Of a stretch of DNA of 64,000 nucleotides, positions 5,195-59,950 are shown piece after piece (within the stretch, counting starts at the first letter, position 1; the number at the start of each line of letters is the position of its first letter). This DNA is from Deltaproteobacteria bacterium (lineage in GTDB: Bacteria > BMS3Abin14): NCBI GenBank assembly GCA_013151915.1, contig JAADHJ010000033.1:37642-101641 (forward strand), written 5' to 3'. Below the pieces are notes generated by a model. That model was given only the letters and a program-made list of their open reading frames with translations, was not told the DNA's origin and did not search any database. Made by a program: the position numbers and the translations under genes.

Positions 5195-5638
5195 ATGAAC
5201 GAGTATCAGAGCAATGGAGCGGAACCGGACGAGAGCCGGGAGATGAATCCCGAAATAATGGAACCGGGGACCGAACCGGAAGAAGTCGGCGGGCCTGAAA
5301 GCTGGGCCTGTCTCGTACTCAACGACGGAGGACGCCTGGAACTTTCCGGTGACGAGGTTGTTATCGGTCGGACGGACCCCCTGGAGGGTATTCATCCCGA
5401 TCTGGATCTTGGTGTCCGCGGTGGCCTGGAAATGGGAGTTTCACGGCGTCACGCTACGATTTTCCGGGAGGACGAAAAGTTCTCGCTTGAGGACCTTGGC
5501 AGCACCAACGGGACTATCATCAATCGCGAGAGGGTCCAGGCCGGCGACAGGGTGACGCTCAACGAGGGGGACGTTATTTACCTGGGACGGTTCAAGGCCG
5601 TCTTCCAGACACCCCACAACAGCGGAGGTTCACAATGA
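5195..5638 (+). CDS. FHA domain protein (acidic N-terminus)
   Basis: 147 aa. FHA core VVIGRTDP...GVSRRHATIFREDEKFSLEDLGSTNGTIINRERV. Its stop overlaps the next gene's start (ATGA). Confidence 0.7.
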   Translation: MNEYQSNGAEPDESREMNPEIMEPGTEPEEVGGPESWACLVLNDGGRLELSGDEVVIGRTDPLEGIHPDLDLGVRGGLEMGVSRRHATIFREDEKFSLEDLGSTNGTIINRERVQAGDRVTLNEGDVIYLGRFKAVFQTPHNSGGSQ

Positions 5639-7755
5639 AGGCCATAGGAAACAGGGTTGCGAGAATGTCGTTCGTCGGTTGCAGCGCAGCCATCTGCGCC
5701 GCTTTGCCGCTGGGGTTGATCCTGTCCCTCTCGCCCGGCGCATCATGGCTGACCATTCTCTTCGGTTTCATCGTGGGAGGTGTCCTCGCCGGTTTTCTCA
5801 CCGCATTCGATCTTCTGTGGACACAGCGGAAGGGCGAACTGGTCAATCGCGTTCTGCGTGCAGCGGCTGCAGGATCCCTTGGCGGCGCATTGGGAGCATG
5901 GGTGGGTCAGATCCTGTTTCGCCTGTGGGGAAATCACCTCGTGGCCGGCCTTTCCGCGGGGATTATTCTCCCTCTGTCCTTCGGAACAGCAGTCGGTTGG
6001 GGGGTGACCGGCCTTGGAATCGGTCTGGCTATCACGCTCCCCTTCCAATCCACCAGGCCCCGCTGGCTCATCGCCGCCAGTGGAGGGACCGTAGGGGGAG
6101 CGGTGGGAGGTCTGTTGATGCAGTTTCTACAGCCGCTGATGGGCCCTGCGAGCCTGATTTTCGGCCTGCTGGCGTTTGGCGCGGCTGTTGGATTCGGCAT
6201 TTCGTGGGCGGAAATGGCTCTTTCCTCCCTACGGCTTCAGGTGCTTGAAGGTCCCGGACGTGGATCGGAATTTACTCTGGGGAAAAACACCCTCATCGGC
6301 AGTGAGGGGAAATGCACCGTCCGCCTGATCGAAGCCGGAGTGGCACCCAGGCATGCCCGTATTTTCCGTAAGGGGAGCAGCCTTTTCTTCGAGGACCTCG
6401 GTTCTTCGGCAGGGAGCGTTTTGAACGATCGCAAGGTGGCGGGAACCGCAGCCGGTGTATCCCACGGCGACCTGATCAGCATCGGAAAAACCCTTCTTCG
6501 GGTCAATGCACCCGGCCGGAAAACAGGCCTGACATCCACCATCTCCATGGCAGCCCTTGCGGCCCTGTGCATCATGGGCCTTTTCCCGGTTCCCTCGGCC
6601 GCCTCCGCACAGGATGCCTCTCAACCCGGCCAGGTGGTCGCCCGCATTACCCAGGTGGACACATCCAGGTACCCTGTCGTGGACCTTTACGCAATACTTC
6701 CCGGCGATCTGAGGCCGGGAAATGTCCATGGCCTGACCGTATTGGAGGGCAAAACGGAAACATCTCTCCTCGAGGTGAGAGATCTGAAAAAGGGCGCCAG
6801 GGATGCCCCTCTCTCCATCTCCATCGTACTCGATACGAGCACGAGCATGAAAGGCCGGAAACTGACCGAGGCCAAAGACGCCGTATACGGCTTTTCCAGG
6901 AGCATCCCCGCGGAGGCCAGGATCAACCTCATATCATTTGACGATGCCGTCCATATCATCTCCACAGGACTTCCCGCGAGTCTCATCTATAAAAACATCG
7001 CTGATCTCTCCGCTTCAGGACACACGGCCCTGTTCGACGGGATCGTCACGGGATCCAACCTGATCCGGAACGAAGCCGGAAGAAAGGTGGTCGTGACGCT
7101 GACCGACGGTATGGCCAACAGGGGTGAAAGCTCCATGAAAGATGCGGTAGCCGCCGCAGAAAAAGCCGGGGTGAGCCTTCTTTTCGTGGGACTTGGCCCG
7201 GATGTCCGACGAGAGAGATTGGGCGGCATGGCGGCCATGACAGGTGGAAGGGCCGTATTTACCTCGGACCCATCCGAGCTTTCAACCCTGTTTGAGACCT
7301 ACGCAACGGAGCTTTCCAGGGAGGTACTTATTCGATACCGTTCAAGTATGCCTGACAATCCTGTTGTCCCTGTGACATTGCGCCTTACGTCCGGGAACAC
7401 TGAATCAATCCTCAACGGCCGATACCTGTCGCCCAGGGCCTCTTTCATGGGGATCTCCGGGGCTACGTCCCCAATCCTCTTTCTACTTGGTCTGCTGGGG
7501 CCGGCAGGGCTTTTCGCCGCGGGGCGCCTTACCTCCTATAACATGGCGAAAGACCCGTTCCTCCTTGTGGAGGGTTCCTCCAAGGCGACCCGTCTGATTA
7601 CCAGGGTCCTTTCCAACGAGGGGATGACGGTTCCGATGTCCATCGGGGGCAAGACTATCCTCGTCAACAACCAACCGGTAAAGGGAACCCGTACTCTAAG
7701 GAGCGGCGAGGCCCTGACCTGGGGCGACACAACCGTCCTGTTCAGAAAAGGTTGA
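5635..7755 (+). CDS. Polytopic membrane protein with FHA domain, von Willebrand factor A (MIDAS) domain and C-terminal FHA-like domain
   Basis: 706 aa. About 200 aa of glycine-rich TM helices. FHA: EFTLGKNTLIGSEG...RHARIFRKGSSLFFEDLGSSAGSVLNDRKV. VWA with MIDAS DTSTSM...SGHTALFDGI...TLTDGMAN. Another TM, then C-terminal LLVEGSSKATRLITRV...GGKTILVNNQPV. RBS GGAGGT upstream. Confidence 0.75.
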   Translation: MKAIGNRVARMSFVGCSAAICAALPLGLILSLSPGASWLTILFGFIVGGVLAGFLTAFDLLWTQRKGELVNRVLRAAAAGSLGGALGAWVGQILFRLWGNHLVAGLSAGIILPLSFGTAVGWGVTGLGIGLAITLPFQSTRPRWLIAASGGTVGGAVGGLLMQFLQPLMGPASLIFGLLAFGAAVGFGISWAEMALSSLRLQVLEGPGRGSEFTLGKNTLIGSEGKCTVRLIEAGVAPRHARIFRKGSSLFFEDLGSSAGSVLNDRKVAGTAAGVSHGDLISIGKTLLRVNAPGRKTGLTSTISMAALAALCIMGLFPVPSAASAQDASQPGQVVARITQVDTSRYPVVDLYAILPGDLRPGNVHGLTVLEGKTETSLLEVRDLKKGARDAPLSISIVLDTSTSMKGRKLTEAKDAVYGFSRSIPAEARINLISFDDAVHIISTGLPASLIYKNIADLSASGHTALFDGIVTGSNLIRNEAGRKVVVTLTDGMANRGESSMKDAVAAAEKAGVSLLFVGLGPDVRRERLGGMAAMTGGRAVFTSDPSELSTLFETYATELSREVLIRYRSSMPDNPVVPVTLRLTSGNTESILNGRYLSPRASFMGISGATSPILFLLGLLGPAGLFAAGRLTSYNMAKDPFLLVEGSSKATRLITRVLSNEGMTVPMSIGGKTILVNNQPVKGTRTLRSGEALTWGDTTVLFRKG

Positions 7756-7922
7756 TGACTTCGCAAAAAGTCATCAACGCACCCATTTGGGGCGCCCAAA
7801 TCGAAGATTTGCGAGGAAAGTGAAAATGACACTTTTCGCTTTCCGTGGAGTAAAAAGTCAGCAATGGACTTTTTACGACCCTATCAACCTTGATGACTTC
7901 GCAAAAAGTCATCAACGCACCT
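7751..7922 (+). repeat. Family A multi-hairpin intergenic repeat (short form) with hairpin 1 duplicated at its 3' end
   Basis: GTTGATGACTTCGCAAAAAGTCATCAACGCAC occurs at 7751-7782 and again at 7889-7920, flanking hairpins 2-5. The element overlaps the stop codon (7753-7755) of the upstream gene. Confidence 0.85.
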
Positions 7923-7947
7923 GCCGGTTTGACCTCTCTCCCCAACT

Positions 7948-8406
7948 GTGATAGCTAAAAAAGGGTTCTTACAGTTGAGGTTGGTGCCGATGCCCGTTGA
8001 CGACAAAAATGATTTTTTCCCTACCCAGACTATCCCCCAAAGGGGAGAAGCAGCCAAACCCGATCGGCCGGCTATGGCGTACATGGCTGTTCTTACAGGT
8101 ACCAAAGCAGGCAGTCAGTACTCATTATTCAACGATAGGCAGACGGTCATCGGCCGTTCCAGTGATTGTGAAATCCATATCGACGACCCGGATGCATCCC
8201 GCCGGCACGCCGCTATTCAACCCTTTGGAAATGACTACTACATAATGGACATGGGCAGCACAAACGGGACGTTGGTCAACGGAAAGCCCGTTGAAAAACG
8301 TATTCTCAGGCACAGCGACAAGATCACCCTTGGCAAACAGGTTCTCCAGTTCATTCTCGTCGGATCGGATGGGGGACCTTATCTGGATGATTCCCTGAAG
8401 GACTAG
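7948..8406 (+). CDS. FHA domain protein
   Basis: 152 aa. QTVIGRSSDCEIHIDDPDASRRHAAI...YYIMDMGSTNGTLVNGKPV. Confidence 0.75.
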   Translation: MIAKKGFLQLRLVPMPVDDKNDFFPTQTIPQRGEAAKPDRPAMAYMAVLTGTKAGSQYSLFNDRQTVIGRSSDCEIHIDDPDASRRHAAIQPFGNDYYIMDMGSTNGTLVNGKPVEKRILRHSDKITLGKQVLQFILVGSDGGPYLDDSLKD

Positions 8407-11135: not shown

Positions 11136-11299
11136 AATCTCCTTTTATTCAGCATTGTGCCTGCCAAAATTTTACAATTCGGGGTCTGGGATCCGGGGGC
11201 TAGATGTTTTTCACGTTCCAAAGCCAACTCACCACAGCGTGACCACTTCCAGGTCACACCACAGGGTTGTTACACAGAGTAAAACTAAGGGTCAGTAGT

Positions 11300-11385
11300 T
11301 TTTTGTTCAGATTATACTCTGTAAAACCCTCATTTAAAATCCTGTGGAGCAGCCTGCGAGGGGCTGCACTGTGGTAAAATAAGGG
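11300..11385 (-). repeat. Family B repeat, partial copy in reverse orientation
   Basis: The reverse complement reads ccacagtgcagcccctcgcaggctgctccacaggattttaaatgagggttttacag, matching the 5' half of the B copies at 22296 and 28487. Confidence 0.55.
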
Positions 11386-11409
11386 GGTATGGGGTCTCCT
11401 CCGGCTGTT

Positions 11410-13209: not shown

Positions 13210-13268
13210 ATCAAGGGCCGCGCAAATCGAAGATTTGTGAGGAAAGCGAAAAGTGGTTAACTTTCCCT
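13210..13268 (+). repeat. Family A repeat fragment (hairpins 3-4 only)
   Basis: gcgcaaatcgaagatttgtgaggaaagcgaaaagtggttaactttccc. Confidence 0.6.
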
Positions 13269-17509: not shown

Positions 17510-17728
17510 TTTTTCTCACACACCCCTGAATGAAGACAGACGGGTCTTTGCGTAGTGAACCGACAAAAAAAGCCCCATTACCACGGGAATTCACAGACTG
17601 CAAGGCTCCCCCGTGGCCATGCGGCATCCATGTACAATACCGGATAACCCCTCGGGCAACCCTACTATACATCTGCAGAGCATGGCAACATGCAGATGGT
17701 AGTGGGAGGAAAAACACAGTAAGACCTC

Positions 17729-22204: not shown

Positions 22205-22295
22205 CGGTTAATGCGTACCCTTCCCTTCCGCCTGTCATTGCGAGCCGAACCTAATGCGAAGCAATCCCGAAGAATTTCGCAGGCTGCGCCAGGAT
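22205..22295 (+). repeat. Family C short repeat (taatgcgtacc...ctgtcattgcgagcc...gcaatc)
   Basis: Shares about 30 conserved nt with 26472-26545; directly abuts family B copy B1. Confidence 0.4.
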
Positions 22296-22450
22296 CAAAA
22301 GCTTTTAACACAGTACAGCCCCTCACAGGCTGCTCCACAGGGTTTTAAAAGAGGGTTTTACAAGGAAGATCTTAAACCCATAAGGTCCTGGTTTAGCCCG
22401 TTAAGGATTTTGATTTAACCCCGTGTACCCTGTGTTAAACAAGTTTTTCC
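22296..22450 (+). repeat. Family B ~155-bp intergenic repeat, full copy
   Basis: caaaagcttttaacac..gcagcccctcacaggctgc(hairpin)tccacagggtttt...ttaaccccgtgtaccctgtgttaaac; about 85% identical to the copy at 28487-28625. Confidence 0.8.
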
Positions 22451-28427: not shown

Positions 28428-28450
28428 GGTTGCTGACTTCGCAAAAAGTC
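28428..28450 (+). repeat. Family A fragment (hairpin 1 half only)
   Basis: ggttgctgacttcgcaaaaagtc matches the first half of the family A hairpin 1; it directly precedes family B copy B2. Confidence 0.4.
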
Positions 28451-28486
28451 CCGCCGGCAGGTTTGCCCCAAGACGGATCTCAAGGT

Positions 28487-28625
28487 CAAAAGCTTTTAAC
28501 ACGGCGCAGCCCCTCACAGGCTGCCCCACAGGGTTTTTAAAGAGGGTTTTACTGAAAAGATCTAACCATAAGATCCTGGTTTAACCCGCCAGGGATTTGG
28601 ATTTAACCCTGTGTTAAATTTGCTT
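28487..28625 (+). repeat. Family B intergenic repeat, full copy
   Basis: caaaagcttttaacacggcgcagcccctcacaggctgccccacagggtttttaaagagggtttt...atttaaccctgtgttaaa. Confidence 0.8.
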
Positions 28626-36215: not shown

Positions 36216-36249
36216 AACCTTCCCTTAGTATCCAGACCCTTAATTATTG

Positions 36250-36408
36250 ACAGGGTCGTAAAAAGTCCATTCGTGGCTTTTTGCTCCACGGAAAGCGAAA
36301 AGTGCCATTTTCTCTTTCCTCACAAATCAACAACTTGCCCTGCAAGTTTTTGATTTGCACATCCTTCAATGGGCGCGTTGATGACTTTTTCGAAGTCATC
36401 AATATTCC
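36250..36408 (-). repeat. Family A multi-hairpin repeat, long-form variant, reverse orientation
   Basis: Reverse complement: ttgatgacttcgaaaaagtcatcaa...caaatcaaaaacttgcagggcaagttgttgatttg...ggaaagagaaaatggcacttttcgctttcc...gcaaaaagccacgaatggactttttacgaccc. Confidence 0.8.
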
Positions 36409-37402: not shown

Positions 37403-40180
37403 TTACCCTCCCGAGACTTCCGGCCCTGTTTCATTCGAGGCCTGCAGTCTCTTTTTCTGGATCTCCTGAACAGTCTTTTTTATCTTGGTAAGCTGTCCTC
37501 CAACATCTCTCTCCTCAACCACGATTCTTTCCGTCTTCTCCACCGCCACGCAGGTAATACCCTTCTCCTTGACTGCATTGTATTCGAAAAGGGCGTTAAC
37601 GTGCACATCCCGGTAGTGGGTGGGGACAAAGATAGTCCCGGGCATGCTCCGATCGGTGACCTTGGCCTGAACCTCCGTTATCCCCTTCATGCCCGTCAAC
37701 CTGATCCAGTCCCCGGTCTTGATCTCAAGGGTCTCCGCATCCTTGGGGTTGACCTCCGCCACGGCGGCAGGGGCGACCTCATTGAGTCCCTTGGCCATTG
37801 TTGTAGTCGTTCCCGAGTGGTAGAGCAGGGTCCCGGGAATCAGTATGTAGGGATAATTGGCTGTGGCCTTTTTGGGCTCCTGATAGGTGACGGGCCTGGC
37901 GCGGCCCAGCCCGCTGGGAAACCTGTCCATATGGAGAACTTCGGTTCCCGGATGGTCGGTCCGTGGGCACGGCCAGTGGAGACCGTTTTTCTCCAGTCGT
38001 TCGGGTTTGATGCCCGCGTAAAACGGGATAACATGGGCGATCTCTTCGGTTATATCCATGCCGTTGGTAAAATCCATGGGGTACCCGAAAAGGGTCGACA
38101 GCTCGGCGATTATCTTCCAGTCATCCCGTGTGTGGCCCTTGCTCTTAATGGCCTTCCTGACACGCTGGACGCGGCGGTCGGTGTTGGTGAAGGTTCCGTC
38201 CTTCTCCGGGCCGCATGATGTTGGGAGAACGACATCTGCAAGAAGCGCCGTGTCGGTGAGAAACATGTCCTGAACAACAAGTAGATCCAGCTTCTTAAGG
38301 GCTTTTTTCACCGTCTCCCGGTCCGGAAAAGAGGAGAGGGGGTTTTCCCCCATAATGTACAACCCTTTCAGCCGACCCTTCAGGGCCGCAAGGATCATTC
38401 CCTCGGCGGAAAGCCCATCCTTGGCGGACAGCGTCGTTTTCCATTGCCCCTCGAACCATTCCCTTATCCCCTCGTCGGCCACCGGCTGATACCCGGGGAA
38501 AAACTCGCACAGGGCGCCCATGTCCATGGAGCCCTGCACGTTGTTATACTCCGACATGGGAATAACACCGGCTCCGAGCCGTCCCACATTCCCGGTGATG
38601 AGGGCGAGGTTTACCGCCGCCGCTACCGTGTCCTCCCCCGTATAGGGGCTCGCCGCTCCAAGGGTGATAATAATGGTGGCATGCCCGGCTGCGGCCAGCA
38701 GGCGGGCCGCTTCGCGGACCTGCTCGGACGGAACACCCGTTACATCCTTCATCTTCTCAGGAGCATAATCCTGCAGGGAGGTCCGAAGTTCCTCCACACC
38801 CGTCACACGTTTCTCACAGAACCTCTTATCCTCCAGTCCTTCATCGAAGATAGTAAAGGCCATGGAGTTCAGCAGGGCGACGCTTGTCCCCGGGGAATGC
38901 CGCATCCAGCTGTCGGCAAACCGTGCAATCTTGACTTTCCGGCTGTTGGCGACGAGAAGCCCGGCATTCCCCGACCGAACCTGTTTGATGACCTTCAGCC
39001 CCGCAACATGATCATCCTCCGTGATGTTCGAATCCAGGGTGAAGATGAGGTCCGAGTGGGTAAGATCGTTCAGGGTATTGGTGGGAGCCTCAACACCGAA
39101 GGCCTTCCTGAGGGCCTCCATGCCGGGAAAATGGGCGAACCTGGCGATGGAGTCGACATTGTTGGTGCCGACAGCCGCCCGCATGAATTTCTGGAAAAGG
39201 TAGTTCTCCTCGTTGGTGCACCTGGCCGAGGCGATGCCTCCCAGAGCATCCGCTCCCTTTTCATCGCGGATCCTTGTCAGACCGTTTACGATGTATTCGT
39301 AGGCCTCATCCCAGGTGGCGGTAACCAGTTCGCCGTCCTTGCGCACCCTGGGCTCGGTTATTCTGTCGGGGTGGTGGACGTACTCGTAGCCGAACCGTCC
39401 CTTGCAGCAGAGGAAGCCGCTGTTGATGGATCCTTCATCATCAACGCCAAGAACATGGTAAATCCGGTCACCCTTAACCTCGAGATTAAGGGTGCATCCC
39501 ACACCACAGAAAGGGCATGTGGTACGGACCGGGGTCAATTCCCAGGAGGGGGCTGTGTACTTGTAGATCCTGCTGTAGAGGGCTCCCACCGGACAGGCCT
39601 GGATGCATTGGCCGCAGAATTCGCAGTCCAGCATTCTGGCAAAGGAAGGTTCAACGACCGTTGGGAAGCCGCGGTTGGTGAAATCCAGTTCCCCTTCCCC
39701 CTGCACTTCATCACAGATCCTTACGCAGCGGCCGCAGAGGATGCAACGGTTCTGGTTCATCTCTATCAGGGGAGACAGATAATCGATCCTCTTTTCCACC
39801 TTGATGTACCCGAACCGTCCGTAATCCTTCCCATGCTCAAAGGTCATATCCTGAAGGCGGCAGCGCCCCGACTGGGGGCAAATGGGGCACTCCAGCGGGT
39901 GGTAGGTCAGGAGAAGCTCCAGGATCGTTTCACGGGCCCTCCTGACCCGGGCAGTATCGGTGTGGATATCCATACCGTCGGCAACGGGTACCACGCAGGA
40001 CGCGAAAAGCCGGTCAGACCCTTCAACCTCCACAACGCACATGCGGCAGGATCCGAAGGGCATCAAATGCTTGTAGTCGCAGAAGGTGGGAATATCCACA
40101 TCCAGCATGCGCGCTGCCTCCAGGATGGTGGTCCCCCTTGGCACTTCTACCTTTTTGCCGTCAATGGTGACTTTGAACAT
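37403..40180 (-). CDS. NuoG/FdhA-like Fe-S molybdopterin-oxidoreductase-fold subunit, copy 2 (no Cys/Sec Mo ligand)
   Basis: 925 aa. N-terminal 2Fe-2S and 4Fe-4S cysteine motifs (CDYKHLMPFGSCRMC; HPLECPICPQSGRCRLQ; CILCGRCVRICDE; CEFCGQCIQACP; CPFCGVGCT). The region aligned to FdhF [16 protein letters not shown] reads VDSIARFAHFPGMEAL. Confidence 0.75.
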   Translation of the reverse strand: MFKVTIDGKKVEVPRGTTILEAARMLDVDIPTFCDYKHLMPFGSCRMCVVEVEGSDRLFASCVVPVADGMDIHTDTARVRRARETILELLLTYHPLECPICPQSGRCRLQDMTFEHGKDYGRFGYIKVEKRIDYLSPLIEMNQNRCILCGRCVRICDEVQGEGELDFTNRGFPTVVEPSFARMLDCEFCGQCIQACPVGALYSRIYKYTAPSWELTPVRTTCPFCGVGCTLNLEVKGDRIYHVLGVDDEGSINSGFLCCKGRFGYEYVHHPDRITEPRVRKDGELVTATWDEAYEYIVNGLTRIRDEKGADALGGIASARCTNEENYLFQKFMRAAVGTNNVDSIARFAHFPGMEALRKAFGVEAPTNTLNDLTHSDLIFTLDSNITEDDHVAGLKVIKQVRSGNAGLLVANSRKVKIARFADSWMRHSPGTSVALLNSMAFTIFDEGLEDKRFCEKRVTGVEELRTSLQDYAPEKMKDVTGVPSEQVREAARLLAAAGHATIIITLGAASPYTGEDTVAAAVNLALITGNVGRLGAGVIPMSEYNNVQGSMDMGALCEFFPGYQPVADEGIREWFEGQWKTTLSAKDGLSAEGMILAALKGRLKGLYIMGENPLSSFPDRETVKKALKKLDLLVVQDMFLTDTALLADVVLPTSCGPEKDGTFTNTDRRVQRVRKAIKSKGHTRDDWKIIAELSTLFGYPMDFTNGMDITEEIAHVIPFYAGIKPERLEKNGLHWPCPRTDHPGTEVLHMDRFPSGLGRARPVTYQEPKKATANYPYILIPGTLLYHSGTTTTMAKGLNEVAPAAVAEVNPKDAETLEIKTGDWIRLTGMKGITEVQAKVTDRSMPGTIFVPTHYRDVHVNALFEYNAVKEKGITCVAVEKTERIVVEERDVGGQLTKIKKTVQEIQKKRLQASNETGPEVSGG

Positions 40181-40209
40181 GAAATTTCCTCTGCCGACGA
40201 ATTCTTAAC

Positions 40210-40252
40210 GTTGATAGGGTCGTAAAAAATCCATTAATGGCTTTTTATTCCT
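40210..40252 (-). repeat. Family A fragment: solo hairpin 5
   Basis: gggtcgtaaaaaatccattaatggctttttattcc; overlaps the stop codon of the NuoF-GltD fusion gene. Confidence 0.5.
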
Positions 40253-43200
40253 CGTTATCACATCGGAGACAGCGACGTGCTTCCTTCATGGCCGTCTCCA
40301 CGGTAAAACCCAGATCGACCTCCGCAAAACCGAGAAGCCTTTTTTCCATCTCCATGGTCGGCATTTCAGGCCTTGCAAGATGCATGTCTTCTTCGGTGAG
40401 CTCAAGCGGCTTAATGGAATCAATGTTAGGCATGGTGATCCTGTATTGGGGGACCACATCCTCCCCGTTGAGATAGAGTTGCATGTGGGCTGCCGCCCTC
40501 TTTCCCGCAGCAATGGCGTCTATGACCATCCATGGGCCTGTTACAACATCCCCGCCGGCGAACACACCCTCAACGTTGGTCATCTGGGTAAAAGGATGGG
40601 CCTCAAGGGTGTTCCACTTGGTGATGTCCAATCCCTGGGACTTTTCTATGAAGGAGAGGTCCGGCTTTCCGCTGATGGCCACGATCAGGTTATCCAGTTC
40701 CATGTCGAACTCGGAACCCTCTATTGGAACCGGCCGGCGTCTGCCGGATGAATCCGGCTCACCGAGTTCCATCCTGATGCACTGCACTCCCGACATTTTT
40801 CCACCGGAGGTGAGGATTTTTACCGGTGCAACCAACTGAACCAACTCAGCGCCCTCTTTAAGCGCCTCCTCGATCTCCATATCGTCGGCGGGCATTTCCT
40901 TCTTGGTCCTGCGGTAAAGGATGGTCACCTCGGACCCCAATCGCCGCGCGATCCTGGAAGCGTCGATGGCCGTGTTTCCACCCCCGACAACCCCAACCTT
41001 CTTTCCGAGGAGTACCTTCTCACCGAGGTTGACCCTCCGCAGGAATGAAAGGCTCTCGTACACACCTTCAGCATTCTCACCCGGAATTCCCATTTTCAGA
41101 TCCACGTGGGCCCCGGTGGCGATGAACACCGCCTCATGATCCATGCGGATCCGGTCGAAACTGATGGTCTCGCCGATGCGGGTGTTGAGATAAAACTCGA
41201 CACCCATCCTCTCGATAGCGTGGATCTCATGTTTCAGGGTATCCCTGGGCAGACGGTATTCCGGAATTCCAAGGGAAAGCATTCCTCCGGCAATCGGCTG
41301 GGCCTCGAAGATGACCGGGGAGTAATCGTCCAGGGCAAGATAATGGGCCGCTGTAAGACCGGCCGGGCCCCCTCCGATGATCGCCACCTTTTTGCCTTTT
41401 CCGGAGACCTTCCGGACGTTGATCCTGTATCCGCCGGAAGACTCCTCCTTGGCCGCGAAGTCCGCAGCTACACGCTTCATGTTCCGGATACTGATGGGCC
41501 TGTCCAGCTCACCACGGCGGCACTTCCCCTCACAAGGATGGTGGCAGACCCGGCCGCAAACGGCTGGAAGCGGGTTGGTAAGGCGGATAAGTTCCAGTGA
41601 CTCGGTAAACTTCCCCTCCCCTATGAGCGTGAGATAGGCCGGCACGTCGGTCTCGATGGGGCAGACGTGCTGGCACGGGGAGGAGATGATCGGTTTGCAT
41701 ACCACCGCGGGGCATCTCTTGTTGATAATGTGAGCCTCGTATTCCTGGCGGAAATACCGGAGGGTAGAGAGGACGGGGTTGGGAGCCGTCTGCCCAAGGC
41801 CGCAGAGAGATGCGGCCTTGATCTCCTTGCCCAGATCCTCGAGGTTCTTCATGTCGTCCATGGTACCCTCTCCCGCCGTGATGCGTTCGAGGATTCCCAG
41901 CATGGTCTTGGTTCCCATGCGGCACGGTACGCACTTTCCACAGGACTCCGCCGTGGTAAACGAGAGGAAAAACCTGGCCACATCCACCATGCAGGTCCGC
42001 TCGTCCATTACGACTACTCCGCCGGAACCCATCATGGCGCCGGCCTGGATGAGAGAGTCGTAGTCGATGGGGGTATCGATGACCTCCGAGGGCAGGCATC
42101 CGCCTGACGGGCCGCCAAGCTGGGCGGCCTTGTACTTCTTGCCGCCCACAATCCCACCGCCGATGTCGTAGATTATCTCCTTGAGCTGGGTCCCTGCCGG
42201 AACCTCGATGAGCCCGGTGTTCTGGATCTTCCCTGTGAGGGCGAAAACCTTTGTGCCTTTAGTGCCTTTCGTTCCCACCGCGGCATAGCTATCGGCGCCA
42301 TTGAGGATGATGGGCGGCACGTTGGCAAAGGTCTCGACGTTGTTTATGTTCGATGGCTTGGCCCACAGACCCTTATGGGCCGGGAAAGGGGGTCTGGATC
42401 TGGGCATGCCCCGTCTGCCCTCGATAGAGGCCATCAGGGCGGTCTCCTCTCCGCAGACAAAGGCGCCGGCGCCCTCTTTTATCCTCAGGGTAAAGGAAAA
42501 ATCTGAGCCCAGAATTTTCTCACCCAGGTAGTTTTTTTCTTCGGCCTGGGCTATGGCGATCTTCAGACGTTCAATGGCCAGTGGATACTCCGCGCGGCAG
42601 TAGATATAGCCATACCGGGCTCCTATGGCGTAGGCGGCAATGATCATCCCCTCTATTACGGCATGAGGATCCCCCTCCAGGACGCTCCGGTCCATGAACG
42701 CGCCTGGGTCTCCCTCATCGGCGTTGCAGATAAGATATTTGGGGTCCCCCGCGGCGTTGGCGCAGAACTCCCATTTCAGCCCGGTGGGAAACCCTCCCCC
42801 GCCCCTTCCCCTGAGGCCGGATCTTTTCACGACCTCCCTGACGATTGTGGGGGACATTGTATTGATGGCCTTCTCCGCCGCCTTGTATCCATCGGTCTCG
42901 AGGTAGTCCTCCAGTTTCACGGGGTCAATGAAGCCGCAACGCCTGAGGACGACCCGCTTCTGTTTCTTGAAGACGGGCATCTCCTCATAGGTTGGTATCC
43001 CCTCATACGGCTTGCCCCCCTTCGGAACGATCTGGCCGATAGCATAATCGGTGAGAGGCTTTCCGTTTACCAGATGTTCCTTGAGGATTTCCGGGACCAT
43101 TGCGGGTTCGACCTTTGCATAGGTAACACGGGCCCGTCCGGGAAGGGATACGTCAAGCAGCACCTCTTGATAGCACATCCCGATACAGCCGGTTTTCAGA

Positions 43201-43325
43201 ATAGGCACCTGCAAGGAGATGTCCTTCAGTTGATGCTCCACCTCCTGAAGGACTCCCTTGGCCCCCGAAGCAAGGCCGCAGGTCCCCATGCCGATTACGA
43301 TCAATTTATCGCTGTCGTATCCCAT
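40245..43325 (-). CDS. Fusion protein: thioredoxin-like [2Fe-2S] domain + NuoF-like (FMN/NADH, 51 kDa) domain + GltD-like NAD(P)H:FAD oxidoreductase domain
   Basis: 1026 aa. NuoF block GLRGRGGGGFPTGLKWEF...ICNADEGDPGAF...GAGAFVCGEETAL...ESCGKCVPCR. Ferredoxin-like Cys clusters CPAVVCKPIISSPCQHVCP and AVCGRVCHHPCEGKC. GltD-like dinucleotide folds KKVAIIGGGPAGLTAAHYL and KKVGVVGGGNTAIDASR. Confidence 0.8.
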   Translation of the reverse strand: MGYDSDKLIVIGMGTCGLASGAKGVLQEVEHQLKDISLQVPILKTGCIGMCYQEVLLDVSLPGRARVTYAKVEPAMVPEILKEHLVNGKPLTDYAIGQIVPKGGKPYEGIPTYEEMPVFKKQKRVVLRRCGFIDPVKLEDYLETDGYKAAEKAINTMSPTIVREVVKRSGLRGRGGGGFPTGLKWEFCANAAGDPKYLICNADEGDPGAFMDRSVLEGDPHAVIEGMIIAAYAIGARYGYIYCRAEYPLAIERLKIAIAQAEEKNYLGEKILGSDFSFTLRIKEGAGAFVCGEETALMASIEGRRGMPRSRPPFPAHKGLWAKPSNINNVETFANVPPIILNGADSYAAVGTKGTKGTKVFALTGKIQNTGLIEVPAGTQLKEIIYDIGGGIVGGKKYKAAQLGGPSGGCLPSEVIDTPIDYDSLIQAGAMMGSGGVVVMDERTCMVDVARFFLSFTTAESCGKCVPCRMGTKTMLGILERITAGEGTMDDMKNLEDLGKEIKAASLCGLGQTAPNPVLSTLRYFRQEYEAHIINKRCPAVVCKPIISSPCQHVCPIETDVPAYLTLIGEGKFTESLELIRLTNPLPAVCGRVCHHPCEGKCRRGELDRPISIRNMKRVAADFAAKEESSGGYRINVRKVSGKGKKVAIIGGGPAGLTAAHYLALDDYSPVIFEAQPIAGGMLSLGIPEYRLPRDTLKHEIHAIERMGVEFYLNTRIGETISFDRIRMDHEAVFIATGAHVDLKMGIPGENAEGVYESLSFLRRVNLGEKVLLGKKVGVVGGGNTAIDASRIARRLGSEVTILYRRTKKEMPADDMEIEEALKEGAELVQLVAPVKILTSGGKMSGVQCIRMELGEPDSSGRRRPVPIEGSEFDMELDNLIVAISGKPDLSFIEKSQGLDITKWNTLEAHPFTQMTNVEGVFAGGDVVTGPWMVIDAIAAGKRAAAHMQLYLNGEDVVPQYRITMPNIDSIKPLELTEEDMHLARPEMPTMEMEKRLLGFAEVDLGFTVETAMKEARRCLRCDNEE

Positions 43326-43357
43326 CTGCTGCTATATCCTCCTGATGAAGAGTGGTT

Positions 43358-43924
43358 TCATTCTCCCCTCTTCATACTGTCCATTTCGCGGAGGTTCTCG
43401 ATAATCTTCTCCACCTTGACCGGATCGAGTTGCCCCGACGCATCGTCATCTATCATAATGACCGGGGCCAGACCGCAGGCGCCCAGACAGGCTACCTTCT
43501 CGAATGAAGCGAACCCGTCTTCAGTGGTTTGTCCGTGTGTAATACCCAGGATCGACTCCAGCTTTCCAATGATGCTCTTGCCGCCCCTGACGTGGCAGGC
43601 CGTACCTGAACAGGCCCTGATAATGTGACGTCCCCTGGGTGTGAGATGAAACTGGGTGTAAAAGGTCAGGACTCCGTAGACCTGGCTGCGGTAGATGCCC
43701 ATCCCGTCGGCAACCATGTCGGCGGCCTCCTCGGGAACGTAGCCATAGACCCTCTGAACGTCCTGAAGAACAGGGATCAACATCCCCTTGGTTTCATGGA
43801 GCGAATCGAGAATCTTCAGCACGGCAGCCAGGTCGATCTCCTCCTCGACCTCCTCGATTCCCGCGTCCTCCCTTACGTCCTCCAGTGTTACCTCGGTAAC
43901 ATCGGCGCTCACCGCCACCTCCAC
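43358..43924 (-). CDS. NuoE-like [2Fe-2S] 24-kDa-type subunit, copy 2 (acidic N-terminal extension)
   Basis: IIRACSGTACHVRGG...VACLGACGLAPVIMID (Cx4C...Cx3C). Confidence 0.8.
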   Translation of the reverse strand: MEVAVSADVTEVTLEDVREDAGIEEVEEEIDLAAVLKILDSLHETKGMLIPVLQDVQRVYGYVPEEAADMVADGMGIYRSQVYGVLTFYTQFHLTPRGRHIIRACSGTACHVRGGKSIIGKLESILGITHGQTTEDGFASFEKVACLGACGLAPVIMIDDDASGQLDPVKVEKIIENLREMDSMKRGE

Positions 43925-44376
43925 ATATAGTTCACCATATCGATGTACCGTTCATTCATTCCCCTCAGGGAATCCACCAGTTCATCTATGATAAGCTTCA
44001 GAATCTTTACGGCGTCCGCCGGATATTCTTCTACAAACCGGTCGAAGGACGCACGATCCAGCAGGTACAGAACGCTCTCCCCCTTGGCGCCGGCATCAGC
44101 CGAGTGCTCCCCTCCCGAAAGGAAGGTCATGATACCGACGAAACGCCCCGCGGGAACGACACCCAGGTTCTGAGCCTCGCCCTCCTTGGCTCTCTTCGTG
44201 ATTCTGACGGCTCCCTGACCAACCAGATAAAGATCGCCTCCCGTGGTTCCTTCGTTAAAGATCGGCTCCCTGTCCTGGTAGGATCGCTTCTGAAGGACGC
44301 CTGCCAGGTAATTGAGAGCATTGTCCGAAATACCCTGGAATGACTGCATCTGTTTAAGTTGGCCGATTTCAATCAT
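43909..44376 (-). CDS. Stand-alone cyclic-nucleotide-binding (CAP effector-type) domain protein
   Basis: 155 aa. PIFNEGTTGGDLYLVGQGAVRITKR...GRFVGIMTFLSGGEHSADAGAKGESVLYLLDRASFDRF. No HTH or output domain. Confidence 0.7.
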   Translation of the reverse strand: MIEIGQLKQMQSFQGISDNALNYLAGVLQKRSYQDREPIFNEGTTGGDLYLVGQGAVRITKRAKEGEAQNLGVVPAGRFVGIMTFLSGGEHSADAGAKGESVLYLLDRASFDRFVEEYPADAVKILKLIIDELVDSLRGMNERYIDMVNYMWRWR

Positions 44377-44389
44377 CTTTCATTCCTCC

Positions 44390-47065
44390 TCAACACTTTT
44401 CAACCCGGACCCGAACCACAGCGGTCTCCAACCCGGCTCCGTTTTCCCCCATAAGGCGGCTGACCGGAACATCGGAGAAGTGGCGCGGGAGATAGAGCAC
44501 CCCGGGCAAAAGATCGTTGGAATACTTTACACCCAGGGCAACCTCACCGCTGGGGGAAACTACCTTGACCCGGCTCCCATCCTCAATCTCCAGCCCGGCG
44601 CCCGTAACCCTGTTCATGGATAGAACCGCGCTGTTGACAAGTTGATTGAGGGATTCCGAATACCTGGTAAAGCTCCCGGAGTGGACCAACAGGTTACCGA
44701 TCAGCAGTGTCAAGGGGTAATCCGGGTTTTTCGAGAAACCTCCCCATCCCTTCACCGCGGCGAAGGAGCGCTTCCCCGCCGGGACCGAATCCGGTAGAAG
44801 GTGTCTGGTCCCCAGATAACCCTCACTGTAGACGTCATGGACATCCTGCCGGGTAAAGGGCCACTGAATGCCGTTGTCGGCGAGGATACGGTAACTGATC
44901 CCGGAGTAATAAGGTACGACCTCGGCAATCTCATCGAGAACCTCCGCGGAGTTGACGTACTTGAGCCCTTCAACACCCATGGACACTCCGACTTCCGAGA
45001 AGATCCTCCAATCGGGCATGGTTTTTCCAGCGCCATCCTGAGCTTTTTTGCTCCGCTGGACTCTCCTGTCCAGACTGGTGAGGGTACCGTTCTTTTCAGG
45101 AAGGCCACATGCCGGCAGAACGACATGGGCCCTGGAGGCCGTTTCCGTCAGGAACAGCTCCTGGACCACGAGGAAGTCCACCTTGGCCAAAGCCTCCTCG
45201 ACCATCTGCCCATCCGGGAACGTAATAACCGGGTTGACCCCCACGAGGTACAATGCCTGCAGCTTCCCGTCCCCGGCGGCGGCGAAAATCTCGTTGGCGT
45301 TCATCCCCGGCTTTTGCGGCAGAACGGCATTCCAGGCTTTTTCCAGGGTTTTTCTGTCCCTGGAAGATTCAACCGGAACCCACCCGGGGAGATGGTCCGG
45401 TGAGACACCCATATCCACAACCCCCTGAAAGTTGGTGTTGGAAAGAACGGGAAAAAGACCGCAACCTTCCTTTCCAAGGCGTCCGGTGAGCATCAGGAGA
45501 TCGACGAGAGCGTTTATCAGGTCGTCGCCGTTGGGTCCGAAGGCGGCTTCCTCACCAAATATTATGGACGATTTTCCAGCGGAGATAAATTCCCTTGCGG
45601 TCTGAACGATGTCGTGGACGGAAACGCCCGAGTTGGAGGCTATCTTCTCAAGATCAAGGCCGCTTACCGAATCCCTTAGGGCCTTTGTGCCCTTATAATC
45701 CGCCAGGGCCTCCACATCGACCAGTTCCTCTTCCAGCATGACCCGCATCATCCCTTTGATGAACGCCACCTCGTTGCCCACGTCAATGAGAATCGTCCGG
45801 GCGGCAAGCCGTGACAGGGCTGTGCTCCTGGGCATAAGCTCGGTTACCAGAGCGCCCTTTTTGATGGCCGATTTGACCTTGAGTCCCGCAATGGGGCTCT
45901 CCACGGTTATGTCGCATCCCACGAGGAGTAAAGAGTCAACATAATTAAGCTCGTCTATGGAATTCGGTGCGGCAAAAACCCCAAGCCGTTTCTCGAGGAT
46001 GGGCAGGACAACGCGGGTCCAGTTTCCAGACGGCGTGTCCACGTTGTTGCTTTCAAGAACGACCCTGAAAACCTTCTGGAACAGATAGAGCTCCTCATTG
46101 GTCAGGCGGTCCGATACGATCCCCCCTATTGCGCTGCCGCCACCCGACTTCTTCACTCCCCCAAAACCCTGGGCAACCGCGGCGAGAGCTTCGTCCCAGG
46201 AGACCTCGACCAGTTCACCGTCCTTCCGGATCAGGGGGGTTTTAAGCCGCTCGGGGTTGTTGATGACATCGTATCCGAAAAAACCCCTGGAGCACAGGCT
46301 GCCGTTGTTGATCCCCCTGTTTTCCGCATTGGTCACCTTGAGCACCCTGTTCTCCCTATGGTTGTAGAGCAGAGTGCACCCCATGCTGCAGAAGGGGCAG
46401 ATGGATTCCATCTTGTCCATCTCCCATGTACGGAACGTCTCCTTCATGGCCCTGGAGGTAATAGCCCCCGCCGGGCATGCCCAGATACAGTGTCCGCAGT
46501 ATTCGCAATCAAGGGACTTTTCCATGAACGGGCCCACGACCGTTTGAGCGCCGCGGTAGGACATTCCCAGGGCCGTCACCCCCTGGACCTCGTCACATAT
46601 CCTGACGCATCTTTTGCACTGTATGCATCTGTTAAGATTCCGGTCGATCAGGGGGCTGATGATATGGTCCCTCAGGACCCTCTTTTTCTCGCTGAACCTG
46701 GTCTCGCCGCTTCCGAACTTGAAGGCAAGATCCTGAAGGGTGCATTCCCCGGAGGCATCGCACACGGTACACTCGAGGGGATGGTTGATGAGGAGAAATT
46801 CCAGCATCATCCTCCTGGCCTTCTGGACGCGGGGCGTGTCGGTTCTTACCTCCATGCCTTCCAGGACCGCAAGGGTGCAGGCCGTCTGGAGCTTGCCCAT
46901 TCCCTCCACCTCCACCAGGCACATGCGGCAGGCACCAAGCTCGCTCAGCATGGGGTGATGGCAGAAAGTGGGAATATGGATGCCGAGTTTTCTCGCGGCG
47001 GTAAGGACATTAATATGCCCGTCCACCTTGATCTGCTTGCCATCTATTACCAGGCGGACCATCAT
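44390..47065 (-). CDS. nuoG: NADH-quinone oxidoreductase subunit G-like (75-kDa Fe-S / molybdopterin-fold subunit), copy 1, directly after nuoF
   Basis: 891 aa. HIPTFCHHPMLSELGACRMCLVEVEG; HPLECTVCDASGECTLQ; CIQCKRCVRICDE; CEYCGHCIWACP; CPFCSMGCT. Start overlaps the nuoF stop (ATGA). Confidence 0.8.
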   Translation of the reverse strand: MMVRLVIDGKQIKVDGHINVLTAARKLGIHIPTFCHHPMLSELGACRMCLVEVEGMGKLQTACTLAVLEGMEVRTDTPRVQKARRMMLEFLLINHPLECTVCDASGECTLQDLAFKFGSGETRFSEKKRVLRDHIISPLIDRNLNRCIQCKRCVRICDEVQGVTALGMSYRGAQTVVGPFMEKSLDCEYCGHCIWACPAGAITSRAMKETFRTWEMDKMESICPFCSMGCTLLYNHRENRVLKVTNAENRGINNGSLCSRGFFGYDVINNPERLKTPLIRKDGELVEVSWDEALAAVAQGFGGVKKSGGGSAIGGIVSDRLTNEELYLFQKVFRVVLESNNVDTPSGNWTRVVLPILEKRLGVFAAPNSIDELNYVDSLLLVGCDITVESPIAGLKVKSAIKKGALVTELMPRSTALSRLAARTILIDVGNEVAFIKGMMRVMLEEELVDVEALADYKGTKALRDSVSGLDLEKIASNSGVSVHDIVQTAREFISAGKSSIIFGEEAAFGPNGDDLINALVDLLMLTGRLGKEGCGLFPVLSNTNFQGVVDMGVSPDHLPGWVPVESSRDRKTLEKAWNAVLPQKPGMNANEIFAAAGDGKLQALYLVGVNPVITFPDGQMVEEALAKVDFLVVQELFLTETASRAHVVLPACGLPEKNGTLTSLDRRVQRSKKAQDGAGKTMPDWRIFSEVGVSMGVEGLKYVNSAEVLDEIAEVVPYYSGISYRILADNGIQWPFTRQDVHDVYSEGYLGTRHLLPDSVPAGKRSFAAVKGWGGFSKNPDYPLTLLIGNLLVHSGSFTRYSESLNQLVNSAVLSMNRVTGAGLEIEDGSRVKVVSPSGEVALGVKYSNDLLPGVLYLPRHFSDVPVSRLMGENGAGLETAVVRVRVEKC

Positions 47066-53085: not shown

Positions 53086-53222
53086 TATTGATGACTTCGC
53101 AAGAAGTCATCAATATGCCCTTTGAGGGGCGCTCAAATCGAAGATTTGTGAGGAAAGTGAAAATGACACTTTTCGCTTTCCGTGAAGTAAAAAGCCATGT
53201 ATGGACTTTTTACGACACTATC
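53086..53222 (+). repeat. Family A multi-hairpin intergenic repeat (short form)
   Basis: ttgatgacttcgcaagaagtcatcaa / gcccTTTGAggggcgc / caaatcgaagatttg / ggaaagtgaaaatgacacttttcgctttcc / gtaaaaagccatgtatggactttttac. Confidence 0.85.
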
Positions 53223-53408
53223 ATATTGACAATCTGAAAATCACTCTGCTAGGTTGTGGCCTGATTTTCCGGGAGTCCCTGATGGAACTTTTTGTCCTGA
53301 TTTTCGACCGAGTTGAACTCCCGGATGAGGTTCTGTCCTATTTCGTCGAAACGAGGGCCGGCGGCGCGACGGTAGTCGACAGTGCGGGTACGATGAACCC
53401 GCAAACAG

Positions 53409-59129: not shown

Positions 59130-59763
59130 AAAGGTAAGCAGAATCAAGATACCTGATGCGACCATCAGGCGGTTATCCCTGTATGATCGCTGTCTGGAGG
59201 AACTCAGGAAATCGGGCAGCAAGATTGTATCGTCATCCGACATTGCCCGTAAGTGCGGGACCAATCCAGCCCAGATCAGGAAGGATTTCGCCTATTTCGG
59301 GGAGTTCGGGGTAAGAGGGGTGGGATATTACGTGGAAAACCTCCAGATGGACATCAAAATGGCGCTTGGGATAGATCGCCCGTGGATGTGCGCCCTTGTA
59401 GGGGCGGGGAATCTGGGCTTCGCCCTCCTGGGAACCGATTCACTGGCCAAGCGAGGCTTCAGAATATCGGTTATCTTTGAAAAGGACCCGATTCTGGTGG
59501 AGATGGGTTCCTTTCAGGACATTCCACTTTTCGGCATGGACATGATGCCGCAGGTGATATCGGACCTCGGGATTCACATCGGCCTTATCGCCGTCAATCC
59601 CGAGACGGCGTTGAAGGTCGCCCACGACCTCATTGACGCCGGTGTAAAAGGAATCCTGAACTTCACTCCTGCAACCCTCAAGGTTCCGCCCGGGATTGTC
59701 CTGAAAAACATGGACTTCGCCATTGACCTGGAAGGAATCGCTTTCCAGTTGAGCAATCAGTAG
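59119..59763 (+). CDS. rex: Redox-sensing transcriptional repressor Rex
   Basis: MVFKKVSRIKIPDATIRRLSLYDRCLEELRKSG...SSSDIARKCGTNPAQIRKDFAYFGEFGVRGVGYYV + Rossmann CALVGAGNLGFALL. Confidence 0.9.
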   Translation: MVFKKVSRIKIPDATIRRLSLYDRCLEELRKSGSKIVSSSDIARKCGTNPAQIRKDFAYFGEFGVRGVGYYVENLQMDIKMALGIDRPWMCALVGAGNLGFALLGTDSLAKRGFRISVIFEKDPILVEMGSFQDIPLFGMDMMPQVISDLGIHIGLIAVNPETALKVAHDLIDAGVKGILNFTPATLKVPPGIVLKNMDFAIDLEGIAFQLSNQ

Positions 59764-59897
59764 TGATGACTTCGCAAAAAGTCATCAACGCGCCCACTGA
59801 AGGGCGCCCAAATCGAAGATTTGTGAGGAAAGTGAAAATGACACTTTTCGCTTTCCGTGGAGTAAAAAGCCATTAAGGGACTTTTTACGACCCTATA
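59763..59897 (+). repeat. Family A multi-hairpin intergenic repeat (short form), cleanest copy; begins at rex stop codon
   Basis: Five hairpins: TGATGACTTcgcaaaaAGTCATCA; GCGCCCactgaaGGGCGC; CAAATCgaaGATTTG; GGAAAGTGAAAAtgacaCTTTTCGCTTTCC; GTAAAAAGccattaagggaCTTTTTAC. Confidence 0.9.
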
Positions 59898-59950
59898 AAT
59901 AGAGATATACCGGCGGGGCGCGAAACGGAAGGGCGGGAGAGAACAACCGG

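Follow-up and report, generated by a model that had tools for sequence, protein, structure and literature searches.

Why does the spacer between two genes for FHA-domain proteins carry the same palindromic hairpin twice, with four further hairpins in between? The question arises in a 64,000-nt stretch of a deltaproteobacterial genome (GenBank assembly GCA_013151915.1, contig JAADHJ010000033.1, positions 37,642–101,641 of the forward strand), which was analyzed as a whole and is called the window below; coordinates given without a locus name count from its first base, and names such as L053 denote the loci from other genomes and metagenomes that we compared with it. A first-pass annotation of this DNA had offered several answers, namely that the paired hairpins are ends recognized by a transposase or recombinase, that they reflect a tandem insertion of about 1.3 copies, and that the multi-hairpin RNA could act as an internal attenuator or processing site in a putative operon. 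We find that 7752–7925 is probably a head-to-tail pair of units from a non-autonomous family resembling miniature inverted-repeat transposable elements (MITEs), in which an intact 132-nt unit is followed by a 6-nt linker and by a second unit that has been cut down to its first hairpin (H1) and 6 nt beyond it.

Architecture of the doubled hairpin

The exact repeat is the 32-mer TTGATGACTTCGCAAAAAGTCATCAACGCACC, present at 7752–7783 and again at 7890–7921. These positions lie one base to the right of those first annotated as identical, 7751–7782 and 7889–7920; the 32-mer first described, for which 100 shuffles gave no expected matches, is exact at the former and has one mismatch at the latter, in the first base (G versus C). 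H1 is indeed palindromic, with arms TTGATGACTT (7752–7761) and AAGTCATCAA (7768–7777) that form a 10-bp stem, and the pair does bracket the hairpins H2 to H5. The H1 loop, CGCAAA, is asymmetric, and both H1 copies therefore read in the same direction. The predicted fold of the 196-nt region has an energy of −71.5 kcal/mol (z = −6.3 against shuffles).

All features of the locus lie on the + strand. The first unit (7754–7885, GATGAC...CCTATC, 132 nt) is a complete five-hairpin element of a short-H3 subtype, which matches a covariance model of the family over 7752–7887 at 144 bits and can be aligned with 29 other copies. It comprises H1a (7752–7777), whose outer TT are flank bases, the GC-rich hairpin H2 (CGCACCCATTTGGGGCGCC, 7778–7796), the short form of H3 (CAAATCGAAGATTTG, delimited by alignment to 7797–7811, the commonest form elsewhere being ~20 nt longer), H4 (GGAAAGTGAAAATGACACTTTTCGCTTTCC, 7815–7844), which has a 12-bp stem with one U·G pair and is the most conserved module, H5 (GTAAAAAGTCAGCAATGGACTTTTTAC, 7850–7876) and a 3′ tail (GACCCTATC, 7877–7885). 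The tail, delimited by the 3′ consensus of 47 copies, matches the 5′ end GATGACTTCG imperfectly in inverted orientation, and the end motifs of the unit are GATGACTTCG and CGACCCTATC. To its left stands AAGGTT (7748–7753), a native hexamer of the AAnnTT target type discussed below that is also present in the insert-less relative L053 (...AGAAAAGGTTGATGGTTTGACC). To its right, the linker AACCTT (7886–7891) separates the two units; it is of the same type as the linkers of full dimers and unlike the left flank.

What follows the linker is the fragment GATGACTTCGCAAAAAGTCATCAACGCACC (7892–7921), i.e., the remainder of H1b and CGCACC, the start of H2, which together correspond to nt 1–30 of a unit. 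Counting in the linker's TT, the fragment forms the 32-nt block 7890–7921 that is identical to 7752–7783, and it gives a partial covariance-model match (7890–8009, 28 bits). Family similarity continues for 6 nt past H1b, into H2, and the same truncation point is found in L092. The next four bases, TGCC (7922–7925), are a non-family junction held in common with the remnant in the relatives L063/L064 (...CATATTGCCGCTGGTTTGACC). The focal region holds one complete unit, to which a 6-nt linker joins the opening 32 nt of another in head-to-tail order. The suggestion of a tandem 1.3-copy insertion anticipated this arrangement, the second H1 with CGCACC being a unit start joined by an AAnnTT-type linker as in full dimers.

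A dense family of five-hairpin repeats

The repeat is dispersed and intergenic, with a length of 137–157 nt, and some 70 copies of it occur in marine and hydrothermal metagenome-assembled genomes (MAGs). The window holds five full copies (7752–7887, 53088–53224 and 59763–59899 on the + strand; 357–513 and 36247–36402 on the − strand) and three partial ones (13214–13252, 40211–40254 and 28430–28450). Only the focal copy has a second H1, the other four full copies having one each. A scan for the H4 hairpin, with one genome per species, recovered 52 loci, nearly all of them from a few uncultured marine, cold-seep and hydrothermal MAGs labelled "bacterium" or "Proteobacteria bacterium"; CSMAG_1715, SZUA-178, PFL40 and GCA_011040875.1 are among the carriers. 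The MAG copies, which are 152–158 nt long and share the common order H1-H2-H3-H4-H5-tail, were ascertained through H4, and the invariance of H4 among them is thus partly forced. In the + strand copies of the window, H3 is 20 nt shorter. A covariance model built from 30 copies detects ~60 full copies in the 482 kb searched, with scores of 140–190 bits on one strand versus 25–35 on the other. Around the common order, the build of the family varies, with short or long H3, duplicated H4-H5 blocks and solo H1.

Three divergent variants come from gammaproteobacterial MAGs (L006 3265–3420; L034 6082–6237 and L041 3477–3631, both on the − strand). They display the same order of five hairpins, with an H4 that is identical over 30 nt and with H1, H2, H3 and H5 recoded while their pairing is kept; a perfect terminal inverted repeat of 11–12 nt (GGGAAGCGCTGA) bounds them, and TA stands at either flank of two of the three. 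In the main family, many copies with a long H3 (e.g., L007 5805–5817 and the − strand window copy 36247–36402) have the 5′ arm AATCAATGACTTG, which fits WATCAANNNNTTR, the core consensus of the integration host factor IHF; the short-H3 copies, including the focal one, are without this arm.

No Rfam 15 family reached its gathering threshold in the window, and none was matched in the region even at E-values up to 10; a faint match to psRNA14 apart, relaxed scans that also took in two other copies yielded nothing above noise. The best Rfam match of a long-H3 copy (L007 5803–5876, spanning H3 and H4) is psRNA14 (RF02351), at 28.6 bits against a threshold of 60 and with an E-value of ~0.003 in a 191-nt search; the alignment is good along the H3 stem and poor in the second hairpin. 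The viral contigs and plasmids searched gave no matches to the repeat, and no description of the family was found in literature searches by sequence and by MAG accession. A small-peptide gene in H4 (7826–7890: GAGG, nine nt, ATG and ~20 codons, MTLFAFRGVKSHGWTFYDPI...) was also considered and was rejected on account of in-frame TGA or TAA codons in several copies (CCGTTGAGT, CCGATAAGT and CCGCTAAGT).

Insertion polymorphism and target duplications

Loci were compared with the window at nucleotide identities of 96% (L053), 94% (L058/L059), 84–85% (L060–L062) and 85% (L063/L064). Such a comparison of orthologous loci, which the first-pass annotation had suggested as a check, reveals that L053 is without the focal 169 nt (7757–7925) and reads ...AGAAAAGGTTGAT|GGTTTGACC..., the left boundary of the missing segment being the exact start of family similarity. 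Other copies also differ between relatives. The 53088 site is empty in L060 (GGGTATTGACAACC) and has suffered a 117-nt deletion in L058/L059 that leaves half of H5 and the tail, and the 357–513 copy has a 92-nt internal deletion in L053. The 59763 site, after a rex-like gene, exists in three states: a full unit with 50 extra nt in the window (59763–59950), a 15-nt spacer with a trace of GATGAC in the 94% relatives (L058 7039–7054), and a remnant of H2, short H3 and half of H4 in the 84% relatives (L060 11993–12044). At the 13214 site, H3 and one half each of H2 and H4 remain in the window (13214–13252), and a different remnant in L053 (17380–17479). The latter stretch of L053 consists of an extended-stem H1 (AAGGGTGATGAC...GTCATCACCCTT) followed by ~70 nt unrelated to the family.

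The flanks of the copies carry a second kind of footprint: the bases just 5′ of GATGAC recur directly after the tail CTATC across copies. In 12 of 31 copies, three or more nt of the upstream flank recur past the tail, where 2.4 copies would be expected and 2000 shuffles yielded no more than 9; exact in-register duplications of 6–7 nt (AGATATT, AGTAGTT, AACAATT, AAGGTT and AAAATT) are found in 5 of 26 copies, the expectation being 0.36, and many further copies match at 5 of 6 positions. The duplicated site averages AAnnTT, usually followed by GA. From this pattern it follows that the mobile unit proper is GATGAC...CCTATC, with the outer TT of the H1 5′ arm and the AA past the tail being target bases. 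We rejected TA and TTGAT as the duplicated target of the main family, given that the duplicated bases are the variable ones 5′ of TT and that the TTGA on the 3′ side decays. Read from these flanks, the signature is that of a staggered-cut insertion and fits a MITE.

MITEs are small (<~400 bp), multicopy elements without a transposase gene (PMC3184786). The present units are 132–157 nt long across the family and free of open reading frames (ORFs), with five full copies in 64 kb and ~60 in the MAG loci; target duplications are seen at the level of the family, the focal composite itself having none, and insertion polymorphism is seen both at the focal insert, absent from L053, and at the 53088 site, empty in L060. 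The terminal inverted repeats of the main family (GATGACTTCG versus GATAGGGTCG) match at 6 of 10 positions, and with the second H1 the ends become perfect over 8–10 nt. The presence/absence differences and flank duplications bear out the view that the repeat belongs to a mobile or formerly mobile family.

Array formation and decay

Full head-to-tail dimers in which the two units meet at a tail-AAnnTT-GATGAC junction (...CTATC-AAnnTT-GATGAC...) are found in L021, L023, L038 and L032. Among the 47 tailed copies ascertained through H4, an H1 follows the tail in 4; arrays of this kind recur in ~8% of copies, and ~90% have a single H1. A unit followed by H1 only is seen at four loci besides the focal one. 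A metagenome scan for the dimer junction returned ~17 true family junctions, in which the second unit varies in completeness: it is complete or cut only by the contig end in L076, L077, L081, L082, L084, L087 and L102, ends after H3 in L071/L074, is a deletion derivative in L088, consists of H1 alone in L069/L100 and L099, and consists of H1 and CGCGCC in L092, which stops at the same point as the focal fragment. The linkers in L071/L074, L082, L087 and L090 are identical to the sequence that flanks the first unit on its 5′ side, as would result from a new unit inserting into the target recreated by the resident 5′ junction. The first-pass annotation would have taken the focal pair for a one-off local duplication had related copies never carried a second H1; other copies do carry one. 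The doubled H1 is a recurrent outcome of array formation and decay, and is neither a one-off nor the normal architecture of the family.

The history of the focal site is illuminated by L063/L064, which read ...AAGGGTTGAT GATTTGC TATA GACCATAT TGCCGCT GGTTTGACC... between the same native flanks. Their remnant is composed of the H1 5′ arm and the tail, and its right junction is TGCC, as in the window. From this shared junction we infer that a full unit stood at the H1b position in the common ancestor, which implies that the window and L063/L064 would hold different deletion products of that ancestral unit. The second H1 is best read as a decayed older unit, and the first unit could be either the old tandem partner of the ancestral unit or a later arrival.

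We posit that the units would be moved in trans by a transposase making staggered cuts, with AAnnTT followed by GA as its likely preferred target. As a resident 5′ junction (AAnnTT|GATGAC) would recreate this target, new units might often land directly 5′ of old ones, after which the hairpin-rich units would shed internal segments. The right-hand unit at the focal locus is probably the older one, the 85% relatives retaining a different remnant with the same right junction.

Weighing the explanations

Several observations weigh against this account of a decayed head-to-tail pair. No transposase with matching ends was found, and mobilization is deduced from footprints only; the main family has a weak terminal inverted repeat, as given above; and the length of the duplications seems variable (4–7 nt), with none in many copies. 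The focal locus itself has no flanking duplication and its linker, AACCTT, differs from AAGGTT, so that dimer insertion, same-site insertion, unequal recombination and later deletion may have come in more than one order. Identity between the two blocks of H1 and 6 nt is complete (100% over 32 nt), which would be surprising if the second unit were much older, unless H1 is strongly constrained or was homogenized. Finally, L053 may represent a loss rather than a never-occupied site.

The alternative that survives best, which we nonetheless hold to be unlikely, is that the H1 pair are the working ends of a composite and that the 169 nt of unit and H1b arrived as one piece. The palindromic nature of H1 makes the 3′ arm of H1b (AAGTCATC) match the left end (GATGACTT) perfectly in inverted orientation, which could let a transposase move unit and H1b together; the whole 169 nt are absent from L053, exactly from the start of family similarity; a unit with a solo H1 recurs in L069/L100, L099 and L092; and in the gammaproteobacterial variants a single palindrome makes up both ends, as a perfect 11–12-nt inverted repeat. 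In L069/L100, moreover, the composite is followed by AATATT/ACTATT, which is like the 5′ flank ATTATT at 5 of 6 positions, and here H1b does look like a right end. At the focal locus, however, family similarity extends 6 nt beyond H1b (CGCACC), the AACGCA after H1b is no repeat of AAGGTT, and the TGCC-bearing remnant of L063/L064 implies that a full unit once stood at the H1b position, while across the family most copies make do with one H1. Given that the linker differs from the left flank and that no duplication is found past H1b, both a simple same-site insertion and the movement of the composite in one piece are unsupported here. The proposal that H1 pairs act as ends for a transposase or recombinase is, accordingly, weakly borne out, with L069/L100 speaking for it and the prevalence of single H1, the similarity past H1b and the lack of a duplication around the focal composite speaking against it.

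A local origin of the pair we deem quite improbable. Here, a circular or tandem copy would have recombined with a resident 32-nt H1 remnant by a Campbell-type single crossover or unequal exchange, or replication would have slipped between the TTGATG repeats. This would agree with the 100% identity over exactly the 32 nt that could be shared with a resident remnant, including the rarer CGCACC variant, and with the absence of a duplication around the first unit; the left copy (native AAGG followed by the unit) and the right copy (linker AACC up to the old junction TGCC) are also disposed as a single crossover predicts. However, 32 nt are short for homologous exchange, no donor was identified, and an old dimer with a deletion in the second unit gives the same picture.

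ISDra2 targets TTGAT, and IS608 ends in TCAA. A relic of such an HUH/Y1 single-strand transposon (of the IS200/IS605-PATE or REP/RAYT type), which would insert 3′ of TTGAT without duplication, have the H1 hairpins for its left and right termini and undergo precise excision, is highly improbable: TTGAT does stand 5′ of GACTTCG in ~31 of 37 copies, the insert lies directly 3′ of a native TTGAT with a seamless empty site in L053, folding is strand-specific and H1 has the same orientation at both focal ends, but the variable-sequence duplications flanking many copies are not a product of HUH transposition, the target bases lie inside H1, unlike the geometry of IS608, and the GTAG or CGTC tag that defines REPs (PMC3733652) is absent. 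Measured against REPs, H1 is an untagged 26-nt palindrome that starts with TTGAT and sits in a far longer unit; measured against PATEs, TTGAT is conserved on the 5′ side, yet variable flank bases are duplicated in many copies, and hairpins at both ends are seen only in the focal and a few other copies. A Pfam search of 29 ORFs of the window and of ten ORFs lying between copies in the MAG loci found housekeeping genes only and no transposase; phmmer with sequences of the IS608 TnpA and the Escherichia coli RAYT found no Y1-like ORF in the 482 kb, which is a weak test on an incomplete genome. The suggested mobilization by a RAYT or IS200/IS605 enzyme is therefore disfavored, chiefly by the variable-sequence flank duplications.

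A fold conserved on one strand

Among 30 close copies, 96.7% of the cells are paired (96.6–96.7% across sets), and compensatory changes are found in 8 pairs against 2.0 in shuffles. A divergent set that includes the three gammaproteobacterial variants displays compensatory changes in 24 of 45 pairs, against 10.6 ± 2.1 in shuffles and 4–9 in slid controls, in an alignment that was fitted to the model and is biased towards structure. Every variable hairpin has such changes. Cells with G·U (~61) outnumber those with A·C (~10), so that the complementary strand would fold worse. By crude ORF calls, the folding strand is the sense strand of the upstream gene in 17 cases versus 8, and of the downstream gene in 18 versus 6; in the window it is so in five of five. 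On this comparative evidence, selection maintains the five hairpins on a single strand, usually the one co-oriented with the neighboring genes.

One-strand selection together with gene co-orientation makes it most likely that the unit is co-transcribed, as a predicted structured 3′ untranslated region (UTR) or intercistronic spacer. Its predicted role would be at most that of a modest modifier of RNA stability or translation, and not that of a terminator. One could go further and propose that the five-hairpin core, above all H4, is a functional single-stranded module ferried by different mobile shells rather than filler, a thought that we consider rather unlikely to be correct. It builds on a hairpin order that is the same from an unclassified marine lineage to the Gammaproteobacteria, with ends that differ by group (TTGAT with a 6–7-bp duplication versus GGGAAGCGCTGA with TA flanks), and on the 30-nt identity of H4, which is partly forced by the H4-based search. 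Such a module may be a protein-binding RNA in the 3′ UTR or intercistronic region, or a site in single-stranded DNA.

Stop codon and operon context

The genes around the element (FHA, FHA-VWA, FHA, Ser/Thr kinase and LysM-TPR) are all on the + strand, in keeping with the co-orientation first described. The FHA-VWA gene upstream (5635–7755 in the ORF list; Pfam FHA and VWA) ends in the TGA at 7753–7755, which does lie inside the H1a 5′ arm as annotated, although it is native and not derived from the element: the 19 of 19 orthologues inspected stop at the same residue (...LFRK(G/N/K)* or equivalent), and the insert-less L053 has the same GGT TGA. The overlap of H1 with the stop arises from the match between the element's first bases and those of the target and of the native GATG that follows. 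The same orthologue stops led us to reject both a stop donated by the element and an excision footprint in L053 (GGTT-GAT-GGTT).

Elsewhere in the window, copies do overlap coding ends. The OEP gene at 476–1813 (− strand) extends 38 nt into the 357–513 copy, its last 11 codons (DDFANSHQRAP) and TGA coming from H1/H2, and in L053 the same OEP gene ends within the copy that has the 92-nt deletion. The H5 and tail remnant at 40211–40254 (− strand) overlaps the end of a NuoF-like fusion gene (40245–43325, − strand), whose TAA lies in an H5 arm of the GTAAAAAG type.

The idea of an internal attenuator found no support. The 7600–8100 region has no GC-rich stem with a U run on the + strand, its T runs lying within stems. 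Other copies lie between genes of obvious operons (OEP/RND adaptor; TPR gene/nuoH), which points to a tolerance of read-through. Downstream of the insert and ahead of the next gene lies, further, a conserved native block, GGTTTGACC...TGTGATAGCTAA (7926–7958; in full GGTTTGACCTCTCTCCCCAACTGTGATAGCTAA), which recurs in L053, L063/L064 and L056 and, more loosely, in L054 (60% protein identity). Its −35-like TTGACC at 7929–7934 is good and its −10 poor, and it may serve as a promoter or an operator; a sigma-70 promoter was rejected as a firm assignment, the consensus scan having given no call. The gene that follows encodes another FHA protein (7990–8406, 138 aa, the length also called in orthologues; Pfam FHA), with its ATG at 7990 and GAGG at 7977–7980. 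Liang, Rudd and Deutscher (2015) are reported to have found that REP hairpins of E. coli lying at most ~15 nt from a stop codon can depress translation of the gene that precedes them, and by analogy H1a could possibly have a similar, modest effect on translation. The doubled H1 itself is routine genome wear, for which neither a special recombination mechanism nor an operon attenuator is needed.

Relation to known small repeats

The repeat family is an undescribed one, MITE-like and nearest in behavior to bcr1, BOX and Correia. The bcr1 repeat of the Bacillus cereus group (~155 bp), regarded as a special class of mobile sequence whose stem-loops are kept by compensatory changes, is similar in size, dispersed and intergenic, with a distribution that differs between close strains and with short AT-rich direct repeats (PMC3184786); it is nevertheless unrelated in sequence, belongs to another host lineage and has two stem-loops and 5-bp repeats versus the five hairpins and ~6–7-bp repeats found here. 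BOX of Streptococcus pneumoniae is likewise modular, with a variable number of modules, tandem arrangement, stable predicted folds and intergenic location (PMC3184786), but its modules are unrelated in sequence, and its boxA-boxB(n)-boxC plan comes with a proposed insertion-sequence partner, of which none was found here. Correia/NEMIS, RUP, ERIC, Nezha and Chunjie are comparable as small, ORF-less, multicopy elements with target duplications that lie between or at the ends of genes (PMC3184786). Classical MITEs form one long hairpin through long terminal inverted repeats, unlike the weak terminal repeats and five local hairpins of this family, and Correia duplicates TA, whereas TA flanks are confined here to two of the three gammaproteobacterial variants.

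With REP/BIME/REPIN sequences, the family shares dense occupation of short operon spacers, palindromic hairpins, arrays and strand-specific folding; REPs, however, are 20–40 nt long with a GTAG or CGTC tag (PMC3733652), as against 132–157 nt, no tag, flank duplications and no RAYT found here. The likeness to IS200/IS605 PATEs lies in same-orientation hairpins near both focal ends, TTGAT directly on the 5′ side and a seamless empty site in a relative; the differences are that most copies have flank duplications and a single H1, that target bases lie in a hairpin and that no TnpA was found.

The by-product of asking about one doubled hairpin is a very dense family of five-hairpin repeats that in some MAGs occupies the space between many neighboring genes. 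It combines clear footprints of movement with a preference for AAnnTT sites, which are often at stop codons, and it lends stop codons and C-terminal residues to neighboring genes. It offers a practical marker with which to type strains and detect assembly breaks in the MAGs that carry it, and is a candidate for asking whether structured repeats shape mRNA fate in operons.

Other observations in the window

A second repeat family is present in the window, with a 203-nt copy at 11197–11399 that is absent from L053 (15558–15562) and related copies at 22290–22372 and 28481–28563. The H1-like half-hairpin at 28430–28450 lies just 5′ of the last of these. We considered H1 as a shared end of this second family (11197, 22290 and 28481) and rejected it, the alignment showing no H1 at the ends. 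A further 100-nt insertion relative to L053, at 17554–17653 (…CTTTGCGT|…|GGGCAACC…), is unrelated to either repeat family. Lastly, at 37403–47065 on the − strand, a 1026-aa protein in which NuoF-like domains are fused to Fer4_20 and a pyridine-nucleotide-disulphide oxidoreductase domain has a NuoG-like paralogue on either side (925 and 891 aa), and the group adjoins a standard nuo cluster.

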